From a virus (Duplodnaviria; Heunggongvirae; Uroviricota; Caudoviricetes), in the IMG/VR virus record IMGVR_UViG_2698536657_000017, positions 1 through 35,026 of that record: a DNA stretch of 35,026 bases; one strand, written 5' to 3'. Shown here piece by piece: positions 18,001-21,000 of this stretch. Each line of letters starts with the position of its first letter. The stretch's first letter is position 1. The position numbers were made by a program.

Positions 18001-21000
18001 GATATCCCCTGTAACGAAGTTTGCGTAACAGCATTTTACTCTACGAGTTTGCCAGCCTCCCCCAGTGGGCTGGCTTTTTTTATCTGATGCGCTTCACATC
18101 AGGGTGACGTTCTGTTGCCGCTTCATGGAAAATGTCGCTGAGCCAGCCCGGTATCTCGTCTTCTGTCATATCGTCTGGAATGACAATATCGTATAACCGG
18201 GAGAATTTTCGTTCTGTCAGGTCTGCCCGGAAGACCAGCCAGTGATCACCTTCACGTTTGACACCAATATGTCGACCAAAGACGTTGTAGATTAGCACTA
18301 TCGACCTCTTTCAGGAATTGTGTAACTGAGATGACAGATTCAGATTTCGTCAATAAATGCAAAATGTCAATCCTGAGATCATGGTGAGCTATCTGGCGGT
18401 TTTTTATATCTGTTTAACGGGGGATGTTACATACCTCACAATTCAGTCAGTTGAAGGTTGTCTGCCCGGATGAGAATTTGTTAGAAAATTTCTGCATGGT
18501 GAATCCCCCTGAGCGGAGGGGCATATCAGCGACAGGTGGTTGGTTATATCCCTTATCTGGTGCGGGTTCAGGTGCTGATACTGAACTCACCGGGAGGCAC
18601 CCGGCACCATGCAATGAACGGTACATAGCGCTACTCTTCAGCCCCTCTCCGGAGGGGCTTTTTAATGAGGGGAAGACACTGGGCAGTGAAATGTTAAATC
18701 ACTCACAATTCAGGTAGTTGACGGTTGTCTGCTTGGCTGAGAATTTGTAAAAAAAATCCTGCATGGTGAATCCCCCTGTGCGGAGGGGCGACTGGTGAAT
18801 GGTATGATCTCTTTGATGATCGTAAGCGAGAATACGCGGGTTTGGTGGCACCAGGCCGAACTCACCGGGAGGCACCCGGCACCATGCAGTATACAGAGAT
18901 TAGGCATATACCAAGGCCCCTCATAGCAGGGGCCTTTTTACATGCAAAAAAAGCCGCCCCGGGAAGAGCGGTTGGCAAGAAGAAAAGCAATATGAACAAT
19001 TAATTAACGATGGGAATAATACCTTAGAGTAATCACCTTGCGCAACTGTAAGGGCATATTTCATCTTTGCGGGCTGTTTTTCCGGGTGACTTCTGTGTTT
19101 CCGGAGGCCAGCCTGTACCTTCTCTGACTCAGAACATTATCCCGGCCGGGAGGATTCATGGCATTTAAACACTATGACGTGGTCAGGGCGGCGTCGCCGT
19201 CAGACCTTGCGGAACGAATAACTCAAAAACTGAAGGAAGGGTGGCAGCCTTATGGTAGTGCGCTGATTTCGACAGCTGGTTATGGTGCGGAGTTCATCCA
19301 GCCAGTTGTGAGTGAGGGGAGCATCTCATCACCAGAGGAGCCAGGCAACCGTCCGACGACCTCAGCGCCTTCTGTTGCGCCAGAATATTACTATGTGATC
19401 GCGCTTGCTGGTCAGTCCAATGGTATGTCATACGGTGAGGGACTGCCATTACCGGATACATTCGACAGCCCTGATCCACGTATTAAACAGTTAGCGCGTC
19501 GCAGTACGGTGACACCGGGAGGTGCTGCATGTATCTATAACGATATTATCCCGGCAGATCACTGTCTCCATGATGTGGAGGATATGACAGGGCTTAATCA
19601 TCCCAAAGCGGATTTATCGAAAGGTCAGTACGGCTGTGTGGGACAGGGGCTGCATATCGCCAAAAAGCTTCTGCCATTTATACCGGCGAATGCGGGCATT
19701 CTTCTTGTTCCGTGCTGCCGTGGTGGTTCAGCTTTCACCACCGGAACCGATGGCACATACAGTGACACTACTGGCGCCTCAGAGAGTTCCACCCGCTGGG
19801 GGGTGGGCAGGCCGCTGTATAAGGACCTCATTGGTCGTACAAAAGCCGCGCTGGCGAAGAATCCGAAAAATGTGCTGCTTGCCGTGGTATGGATGCAAGG
19901 GGAATTTGATTTTAACGGAACGCCAGCGAATCATGCAGCCCGTTTTACAGAAGTGGTGGATCAATACCGTGCGGACCTTGCAGATATGGCGGGGCAGTGT
20001 GTGGGTGGCTCAGCTGACAGTGTTCCCTGGATTTGTGGAGACACAACATATTTCTGGAAGCAGAAGAACGAAACGGCGTACCAGACGGTGTACGGTAGTT
20101 ACAAAAATAAAACGGAAAAGAATATCCATTTCGTGCCGTTCATGACCGATGAGAACGGGGTGAATGTGCCGACGAACAAACCGGAAGAAGACCCGGATAT
20201 TCCGGATATCGGGTATTACGGTTCAAAATGGCGAACGGACAGAAGCACCTGGACATCTCAGGACAGGGCCAGTCATTTCAGTTCATGGGCTCGCCGTGGG
20301 ATTATTTCCGACCGTCTGGCAACGGCGATTCTGAGCTGCGCGGGTAAGTCTTCTGCGTTTGTTAATGGTACTGCCGGGGTGGTTGTTCCAGACAGACCGG
20401 TTACCACCTCAGAGTCTGTAATTTTTTACGATGCCAAAAAAGCTTCAGACAATCAGCTGAAACCTTATGGCTGGGACGGTATGGATGGCAGACGCACACT
20501 GGTTGATGACAGCGGCAATAAAGCTCTGCGAATTGAGAAAAATAACAGCGCGAAATCCTGGTCAATGTACTGTGATATTGCTGCAGACAAGGCAAAACTT
20601 TTACTGGAAAAAGGCGGGGAAATTGCTGTCCGGTTTAAAATCCCCGAAAACGTCAATCTTGAGACAACCAGAAACAAGTATGCCTTTGGTTTGTACTGGC
20701 GAATAGCGGAATGGCCGGGTGAGGGTGGTGAAGGCTATCTGAGTTCTTTCTTTGTCCAGACAGATAAAGCCAGTATTGATGTTGCATACCATCATACAGT
20801 TAATCAACAAAAAGAACTTGGCACGTTTGGCGCATTCGACCATGACTGGCATACGCTTGCATTTAAATTTAAGGGCAGTAACAGCATTAATGTTACTCCG
20901 GTGCTTGATGGTGTGGATGGACAGGCGTTTGACCTGGTGAAATGGGCCAATACTGCTAATGGACTCAACAGGTTTGTCATTACGGATATTACAGGTAGTG

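Follow-up and report, generated by a model that had tools for sequence, protein, structure and literature searches.

Which element is formed by two head-to-tail repeats that lie past the antiterminator gene of a tailed phage? The window analyzed here is the whole 35,026-nucleotide stretch (positions 1 to 35,026) of the IMG/VR virus record IMGVR_UViG_2698536657_000017 (Caudoviricetes). A first-pass annotation had noticed two elements of about 230 bp at positions 18437 to 18939 and had considered a pair of small RNAs (sRNAs) or two copies of a Q-dependent late promoter with its terminator. Our results argue for two adjacent, independently terminated sRNA genes of the STnc100/EcOnc27 (sRNA103) family, distant kin of PasD1 and PasD2, that follow a modular unit design and are carried by a lambdoid Stx-type prophage in its moron region; we put the probability of this reading at roughly 0.8.

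Two adjacent copies of an annotated sRNA

Reading of positions 18000 to 19400 together with a repeat scan gave two head-to-tail units, here called A and B, within 18424 to 18945. A 99-nt direct repeat connects 18424-18522 with 18691-18789 at 86% identity, and a 31-nt block, GAACTCACCGGGAGGCACCCGGCACCATGCA, is found without any change at 18583-18613 and 18858-18888; from start to start, the units are 267 and 275 nt apart. Thus, the pair with its conserved ends was real, but its first position had been set wrongly at 18437, since in a pairwise alignment the repeat begins at ATGTTA at 18424 (A) and 18691 (B). The middle of the units, described before as unrelated, proved to be partly alignable, with the same helix layout and a covarying long-range pairing in both. 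At the 3' end of both units, the terminator scan and the fold show a GC-rich hairpin with T5 behind it. The predicted pairing of the 5' with the 3' end was also found: in unit A, TGCATGGTG (18493-18501) is complementary over 9 bp to CACCATGCA (18605-18613), and in unit B, CTGCATGGTG (18759-18768) and CACCATGCAG (18880-18889) form a 10-bp inverted repeat. The terminator loops of both units had been said to expose GGA, which is correct for the 3' edge of the loop in unit A but not for unit B, whose terminator loop has no GGA. In total, there are three GGA motifs in unit A (P2, P5, and terminator) and two in unit B (P2 and P5), all at the 3' edges of loops. The sequence CCCCTNNNCGGAGGGGC occurs four times in near-identical form, in the P2 and terminator hairpins of both units (18506-18522, 18642-18658, 18773-18789, and 18917-18933). 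This likeness, which is lost in PasD and in the SfV and Klebsiella relatives, would permit strand exchange between core and terminator.

To assign the units to a family, the whole window was scanned against Rfam 15. Both units matched RF02076, "Gammaproteobacterial sRNA STnc100," over positions 1 to 206 of the 206 positions of the model, unit A (18465-18670) with 153.3 bits (E = 1.7e-34) and unit B (18732-18945) with 199.8 bits (E = 2.2e-46), at a gathering score of 47. The consensus of this family already holds the closing helix. When units A and B are folded for minimum energy, every helix of the consensus (closing helix, P2, P4, P5, and terminator hairpin) is formed. The sok/hok module at 13960-14134 was the only other Rfam match in the window, the Rfam scans revealed no known riboswitch family in the units, and ARAGORN detected no tRNA or tmRNA in the window. 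The pair consists of neighboring copies of the known STnc100/EcOnc27 family, which is related to PasD; the family is annotated, and no new class is involved. The pair is a real feature, but a largely ordinary one.

Close homologues have been studied in the laboratory. At the moron site, pairs of convergent sRNAs were reported by Tree et al. (2014), among them EcOnc27 and AsxR, located 3' of stx2B. Their supplement reports a peak of Hfq cross-linking and analysis of cDNAs (Hfq-CRAC) for EcOnc27 at Sakai 1268411-1268490 and northern bands of ~235/247 nt, of which the 247-nt form is destabilized without Hfq. Positions 18884-18918 of the window are the exact reverse complement of the 35-nt northern probe for EcOnc27, and therefore, unit B shares its 3' module with EcOnc27. 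The probe given there for EcOnc13 was present in none of the fetched loci and was not used. A 2025 machine-learning study places EcOnc27/sRNA103 under the STnc100 annotation, and strain EDL933 has 11 STnc100 copies, most of them transcribed and one verified by northern blotting. EcOnc27 has the same helices and the same place in a lambdoid prophage as the units described here, but the window carries a tandem pair and prophage Sp5 of E. coli O157 Sakai a single unit; compared to EcOnc27, unit A has another P3, another pseudoknot sequence, and another linker.

PasD1 and PasD2 of enteropathogenic Escherichia coli E2348/69 are northern-verified, Hfq-associated RNAs of 172 to 173 nt (Pearl Mizrahi 2021), and according to a preprint by Zhu, Shabalina, and Storz (2026), PasD and STnc100 share an ancestor. 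Like the window units, PasD lies between Q and the esterase/holin genes and has P1, P2, P4, a pseudoknot of the same type, and a linker followed by a terminator. It differs by a shortened P5 (GCGGGAGGCGC) and scores only 38 to 41 bits on RF02076, below the cutoff. Many targets of PasD were found by Hfq RIL-seq (ligation and sequencing of interacting RNAs), bound via the seed UGUGAG just upstream of the terminator. This seed is present in neither linker of the window units, AAUGAACGGUACAUAGCGCUACUCUUC and GUAUACAGAGAUUAGGCAUAUACC; the units are not near-identical to PasD but share its core architecture. The linkers are mostly unpaired in the folds of both units, and with the Rho-independent terminator and its T5 tail, they give each unit the 3' layout of an Hfq-dependent base-pairing sRNA. 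The idea of an sRNA pair is thus supported by two full-length STnc100 members with a covarying fold, whose homologues are Hfq bound and northern verified.

A covarying core with a pseudoknot

The closing helix P1 is part of the minimum-energy folds of both cores (z = -2.5 and -3.1). Relatives were gathered from IMG/VR with the 22-mer CACCGGGAGGCACCCGGCACCA, which comprises P5 and the adjoining strand of P1, giving 119 stretches with 105 distinct 252-nt contexts. Outside this 22-mer, which was itself the sampling key, the relatives are strikingly divergent; across them, the 22 nt are near-invariant. A pattern search of genome contigs (596 Gb) with GCATGGTGAATCCNCC yielded only chance matches in unrelated phyla, the pattern being too short, and therefore the taxonomic breadth given here is that of the phage and IMG/VR collections.

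With 76 cores aligned by MAFFT without regard to structure, P1, P2, P4, P5, and the proposed pseudoknot were scored. Of the cells, 80% were paired, compared to 42 to 50% with the partner slid, and the covariation score was 0.219, compared to 0.07 to 0.12. When the nested helices were cast as a covariance model (R1), 136 copies from 100 sources were recovered, and in the alignment fitted to it (97 distinct rows), 89% of the cells were paired, versus 44 to 49% with the partner slid. Double-sided changes were seen in 18 of 27 pairs of this alignment and in all eight pairs of P4. Pair 5-172 of P1, for example, is GC in 45, AU in 41, and GU in 6 sequences; the outer half of P1 covaries freely, and the inner UGGUG/CACCA part is fixed. 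Covariation thus supports P1, P2, and P4 across the 97 distinct relatives, and the Infernal/Rfam scan and the covariation analysis that had been suggested as checks both came out in favor of a structured RNA.

In addition to the nested helices, the 3' part of the P4 loop has a pairing partner in a segment 2 to 4 nt past P2 (Table 1). The sequences of this pseudoknot differ widely among relatives: AAUGAUC pairs with GAUCAUU in PasD2, and further examples are CCAGUC/GACUGG, AAGGUUG/CAACCUU, and AGACUGACAAA/UUUGUCAGUCU. With a model in which the pseudoknot helix replaced P4 (R2), six of six pairs had double-sided changes and 89% were paired. Since the R2 alignment is fitted to the pseudoknot helix, the pseudoknot was also tested on the R1 alignment, which is not, by matching the final 8 nt of the P4 loop against the 14 nt that follow P2. 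At least six contiguous pairs were formed in 84% of 67 distinct sequences, which have 42 different P4 loop ends, but in only 12% of non-cognate combinations. In the minimum-energy folds of both cores, the partner segments are mostly unpaired; G18529-C18530 of unit A also pair in P3. A column-wise count on the MAFFT alignment gave 56% paired, an undercount because classes are one column out of register. A duplex-energy shuffle test gave a median p of 0.2 and barely discriminated because GC-rich windows of 17 x 20 nt pair well at random; it was replaced by the position-restricted helix-length test and the pair counts. In a subclass (L034, L013:3245, and L093), the partner strand precedes P4 and is outside its loop; this permuted topology is probably equivalent and would keep the stacking of both helices.

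The Rfam consensus of STnc100 lacks the pseudoknot and includes ~29 nt upstream of P1 that could be leader or promoter. In searchable papers, there is no mention of a pseudoknot for STnc100 or PasD, and the arrays described below are not reported there either. The new part is the pseudoknotted five-helix fold of the conserved core. Its five helices, with the last hairpin abutting the 3' strand of the closing helix, resemble those of a class II tRNA, but this is a resemblance only.

The cassette arrays merit attention too. Arrays were present in 19 of the 100 sources (11 with two units, 6 with three, and 2 with four), with a spacing of mostly 206 to 273 nt. Unit A groups with L058, L067, and L100 and unit B with Sakai EcOnc27, L020, and L120, and both subtypes are widely distributed. 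Since A and B belong to different widespread subtypes, the pair looks like an assembly of cassettes and not like a recent local duplication. In the preprint from the Storz laboratory, the PasA and PasD copies are dispersed and not in tandem; thus, the tandem habit of STnc100-type RNAs adds to that work. Units or arrays were also seen next to phage tRNA genes (L013 2265-4160, L021 342-1253, L098 2498-2812, and L246 3513-3948).

Position in the prophage and relatives elsewhere

A stretch of 561 nt containing the pair had matches in 349 phage records, mostly of Stx-converting phages. Among 5426 complete E. coli genomes, 2770 had matches, and 162 had at least 80% of the query covered at a single place, i.e., by the tandem pair; strains FHI_NMBU_10 and JNEC-KY176, for example, are 99.8% identical to the window over the pair. 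Gene order was derived from the annotation of near-identical loci and from Pfam and PHROG scans (Table 1). Within this lambdoid Stx-type prophage, the units occupy the accessory ("moron") region, with Q on one side and the nanS-p and lysis genes on the other. Because a promoter-like site and hok/sok directly follow Q, the late operon seems to begin with hok. The two open reading frames (ORFs) with phrog_12160 matches appear to be one gene split in two. Positions 17780-18083 are 92% identical to the DNA just 3' of Q in phage phiSTEC1589-Stx1c, and 17780-22645 is shared, at 98%, with Q-proximal DNA of strains FHI_NMBU_10 and JNEC-KY176; the stretch 17788-17869 looks like a relic of a pR'-tR' region, with no Q gene adjoining it in the window. 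In phiSTEC1589-Stx1c, the same pair is located downstream of stx1AB, and the single unit of Sakai Sp5 is found ~75 to 100 nt downstream of stx2B.

Table 1. Coordinates of the two STnc100-type units and of neighboring features in the window
Feature	Position	Strand	Basis or remark
Unit A upstream block (promoter or 5' leader)	18424-18493	+	86% identical to 18691-18760
Unit A promoter-like elements	-35-like TTGAAG 18451-18456; -10-like GAGAAT 18472-18477 or TG-extended GAATTT 18474-18479	+	read from sequence
Unit A core	18494-18612	+	STnc100 153 bits, R1 105 bits, fold, covariation
Unit A P1	18494-18501 / 18605-18612	+	closing helix
Unit A P2	18506-18510 / 18517-18521	+	
Unit A P3, variable hairpin region	18529-18563	+	
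Unit A P4	18564-18571 / 18581-18588	+	
Unit A P5	18590-18594 / 18600-18604	+	
Unit A pseudoknot	UAUCAGC 18524-18530 with GCUGAUA 18574-18580	+	pseudoknot covariation
Unit A linker, single-stranded, candidate seed	18613-18639	+	PasD seed maps to equivalent linker
Unit A terminator	stem 18640-18659; T5 18659-18663	+	terminator scan, fold; 3' module 18613-18663
Unit B upstream block	18691-18760	+	repeat and pairwise alignment
Unit B promoter-like elements	-35-like TTGACG 18718-18723; -10-like GAGAAT 18739-18744 / GAATTT 18741-18746	+	read from sequence
Unit B core	18761-18887	+	STnc100 200 bits, R1 104 bits, fold, covariation
Unit B P1	18761-18768 / 18880-18887	+	extendable to 18759 / 18889
Unit B P2	18773-18777 / 18784-18788	+	
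Unit B P3 hairpins	18803-18824 and 18826-18837	+	
Unit B P4	18838-18846 / 18855-18863	+	
Unit B P5	18865-18869 / 18875-18879	+	
Unit B pseudoknot	CUGGUG 18792-18797 with CACCAG 18849-18854	+	covariation
Unit B linker	18888-18912	+	part of 3' module 18888-18939
Unit B terminator	stem 18913-18921 / 18928-18936; T5 18935-18939	+	
Candidate convergent small RNA, ~63 nt	19009-18947 (locus 18947-19045)	-	-35 TTGCGC 19045-19040, 18-nt spacer, -10 TATTAT 19021-19016; terminator 18971-18954 + T7
Q antiterminator	13480-13929		PF06530; ~4.5 kb upstream of units
Promoter-like TTGAAA-N16-TAGAAT	13926-13953		directly after Q
hok/sok	sok 13960-14134; hok ORF 14129-14284		Rfam sok, 108 bits
N6 DNA methyltransferase moron, 694 aa	14459-16543		weak VRR-NUC match, below Pfam cutoff
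Split phrog_12160 gene (apparent)	ORFs 16603-17139 and 17202-17723		match N- and C-terminal halves; first also Pfam Methylase_S
Promoter-like TTTACA-N16-TATCAT	17788-17815		terminator ~17846-17869; second terminator 18051-18074
DUF7661	18080-18298	-	
nanS-p-type SASA esterase	19158-21068		followed by holin and lysozyme

On the opposite strand, directly downstream of unit B, a candidate convergent small RNA was found that is 93 to 95% conserved in 15 records of Stx1, Shigella, and related E. coli phages. It matched no Rfam family even at E <= 10. Judged by the layout of the locus, which agrees with the convergent pairs of Tree et al. (2014), it is a likely partner of the units, although it lies outside them. 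At the moron site, AgvB and AsxR are encoded convergently to STnc100-type RNAs (Tree et al. 2014) and mark the same type of locus; they are 51 to 60 nt long and unrelated to the units in sequence and size, and the window had no match to the Rfam AgvB/AsxR families. The minus-strand candidate was compared to AgvB/AsxR as well, without a sequence match.

Two groups of relatives are found in other settings. In ST11-VIM1phi8.1, a Klebsiella phage, Q is accompanied by a promoter and a terminator of its own; after these come a relative with a clean TTGAAA-N17-TAAATT promoter, a tRNA-Asn gene, and the holin gene. A Klebsiella-phage subclass (L246 3631-3804 and L022 5449-5630) has an additional conserved extension of ~170 nt between core and terminator; as the start of an ORF, this stretch was rejected since a stop follows after four codons, and the extension is noncoding and ends in the terminator. 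The SfV relative (L245 3063-3260, corresponding to SfV 24748-24945), which has its own terminator, belongs to the early-left region, where it has the cI-orf33 terminator on one side and orf32 on the other; lambda has pL/N at this position. It scored 68 to 70 bits with R1 but was missed at the Rfam gathering score. This relative raised the idea that the core is an antiterminator RNA of the HK639/HK022 type, which was rejected: the model misses the putL-like stretch of HK639 (34187-34312) and instead matches 44809-44925, between Q and holin. The put RNAs of HK022 and HK639 (putL-like) are likewise structured phage RNAs just past promoters, but put has ~70 nt and two stems, and the units end in terminators that are evidently used in homologues.

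Transcripts, function, and competing readings

Each unit could give rise to RNAs of two sizes. By analogy to PasD and to relatives with strong promoters, TTGAAG/TTGACG with the TG-extended GAATTT predicts proximal starts at ~18486 (A) and ~18753 (B) and RNAs of ~178 and 187 nt; candidate distal starts at ~18437 and ~18704 would give ~227 to 236 nt, fitting EcOnc27, and both starts may be in use. The start predicted by the first-pass annotation, at CTGCATGGTG, is one of the two candidates. The corresponding size of 170 to 180 nt fits PasD, whose 5' end is the first base of the closing helix; EcOnc27, with its longer bands, is the closest studied homologue of unit B, and in Sakai Sp5, the block homologous to the conserved upstream block is covered by the Hfq-CRAC peak. 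Promoter-like hexamers can be read in both upstream blocks, but a strict promoter scan did not list those of unit A. At the start of the upstream blocks, CUCACAAUUCAG is kept in both units (18437-18448 and 18704-18715). CUCACA is the reported target motif of the PasD seed, and UCACAAU could also pair with the GUUGUGA of the GcvB R1 region; both would matter only with the distal start.

Taking the units as sRNA genes, the following mode of action is the most likely. Each unit consists of an upstream block (promoter and perhaps a short leader), a core of 119 to 127 nt closed by P1 and containing four internal helices and the pseudoknot, a unit-specific single-stranded linker, and an intrinsic terminator. 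In the lysogen, host RNA polymerase would transcribe each unit and stop at the unit's own terminator. The RNA would then join Hfq, bound by the terminator and the flanking U/A-rich stretches, and the linker would act as a seed that pairs in trans with host or prophage mRNAs, as in PasD; the conserved core would serve as a stabilizing or protein-binding scaffold. With one scaffold in common but each with its own P3, pseudoknot sequence, and linker, A and B would be directed at different targets. Upon induction, Q-modified polymerase would pass both terminators. Transcription, Hfq binding, and the position of the seed are taken here from the papers on homologues, next to the family membership, the covarying fold, the genomic context, and the arrays found in this study; what the RNAs target, what the core does, and where exactly the 5' end lies are inferred.

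Several points weigh against this reading. The 5' end is ambiguous: PasD and those relatives with a clean sigma-70 promoter start at P1, but the cross-linking of EcOnc27 begins ~40 nt upstream of P1. For the window units themselves, transcription and Hfq binding rest on homologues, and their RNA targets are conjectural. The U-tracts of the terminators have 5 nt, which is short for a classical Hfq module, and in an RNA-seq table, the level of PasD is not reduced in an hfq mutant, though northern blots were described as showing Hfq-dependent stability. Finally, the near-invariant 22 nt and the pseudoknot exceed the needs of a base-pairing sRNA, and therefore the core may have a function of its own.

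The last point leads to the strongest competitor, in which the conserved core is a protein-binding or titrating module, e.g., for CsrA or another host factor, and the RNAs act mainly as sponges or guides. We regard this as rather unlikely, but it overlaps with the sRNA reading. A CsrA dimer binds paired GGA motifs, and GGA is found at loop edges of P2 and P5 in both units and of the terminator in unit A; moreover, P5 with its adjoining strand is essentially invariant, and a pseudoknotted five-helix fold is more elaborate than a stabilizing hairpin. However, there are only two or three GGA motifs per RNA, and CsrB and CsrC have many more. The GGA of P2 is not conserved, being kept in only ~56% of distinct relatives (pair 22-29), with the A replaced in ~40%; only that of P5 is conserved among relatives, and the P5 loop is AGGCA and not the GGA-in-loop consensus of CsrA. 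Association with CsrA has been reported for PasD2: in a second 2026 preprint, PasD2 joined to the 3' untranslated region of yjbJ was the most abundant CsrA-bound chimera in CsrA RIL-seq, with ~20% of the chimeric reads, but this evidence comes from PasD2 and not from STnc100 proper.

The conservation seen in the core, with its pseudoknot, its fixed junction nucleotides, and the 22-mer, points to a specific partner, for which CsrA is the sole candidate with evidence, and that evidence is indirect. More generally, we tentatively propose, at somewhat less than even odds, that the core of 110 to 140 nt shared by STnc100, EcOnc27, PasD, and the more distant SfV- and Klebsiella-type elements forms a separate structured RNA domain, functional in its own right. 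In this domain, the pseudoknot would lock a five-way junction that is marked by the near-invariant 22-mer; the domain would bind a specific host or phage factor and be carried by lambdoid phages in arrays of two to four cassettes that exchange nothing but their P3, pseudoknot sequence, and 3' seed module.

An element acting in cis is improbable. The layout of closing helix, linker, and terminator resembles that of a transcriptional riboswitch, and a leader sensing a ligand or factor, with a P1-closed aptamer and the terminator as expression platform, would agree with the highly conserved junction nucleotides and with the near-identical P2 and terminator hairpins of each unit, which allow strand exchange; alternatively, the units could be terminator or insulator cassettes between morons and lysis genes. 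But linker and terminator are not conserved along with the core and are entirely different in PasD and in the members of the SfV, Klebsiella, and Salmonella types; the units form arrays and are found in operons that differ; the homologues build up as discrete RNAs bound to Hfq; and no known riboswitch family matches.

Even less can be said for two copies of the late promoter pR' with its terminator tR', which, like lambda 6S RNA/StxS, would reload Q or give short abortive late transcripts. The units are indeed downstream of Q in the direction of the late operon, each has a promoter-like block followed by a terminator, and some relatives have TTGACA-N17-TAAATT. The -10 element of lambda pR' is TAAATT as well. 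Lambda 6S RNA and StxS are likewise short, terminated transcripts in the late direction of lambdoid phages, but the units are not adjacent to Q, follow stx or other morons, and exist beside separate pR'-tR'-like sites. Q, 4.5 kb upstream, is directly followed by a promoter-like site of its own, and the stretch 17788-17869 is a second one, homologous to post-Q DNA of other phages. The element lies past stx and away from Q in phiSTEC1589-Stx1c and Sakai Sp5; ST11-VIM1phi8.1 has a distinct promoter and terminator between Q and the element; the SfV relative is in the early-left region; and the same core accompanies unrelated Q families. Since the units are in the moron region, ~4.5 kb past Q, and come after stx1AB in the Stx1c phage, they are very unlikely to be a Q-dependent late promoter with its terminator, and the idea of a duplicated pR'-tR' module is not supported.

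We consider a protein-coding gene excluded for practical purposes, in line with the argument of the first-pass annotation against coding. The 97-aa ORF at 18424-18717, which some phage records list as a "hypothetical protein," is open both in the window and in phiSTEC1589-Stx1c (80% amino acid identity), but it has no Pfam or PHROG match, crosses the terminator of unit A into the upstream block of unit B, lacks an equivalent in unit B despite the conserved ends shared by the two, differs in its middle by 2- and 4-nt indels between close relatives that scramble the residues, varies along with base pairing, and is left unannotated by RefSeq.

The sRNA pair in the moron region belongs to a family that is among the most abundant annotated sRNAs of enterobacterial genomes. 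STnc100-type RNAs adjoin Shiga toxin genes, and in the 2025 study, single-nucleotide polymorphisms inside the Stx2-phage copy were among the features that predict hemolytic-uremic syndrome. Experimental handles are now at hand: the covarying pseudoknotted core with its 22-mer, the tandem cassettes that vary in P3, pseudoknot, and linker, and the 3' module common to unit B and EcOnc27.

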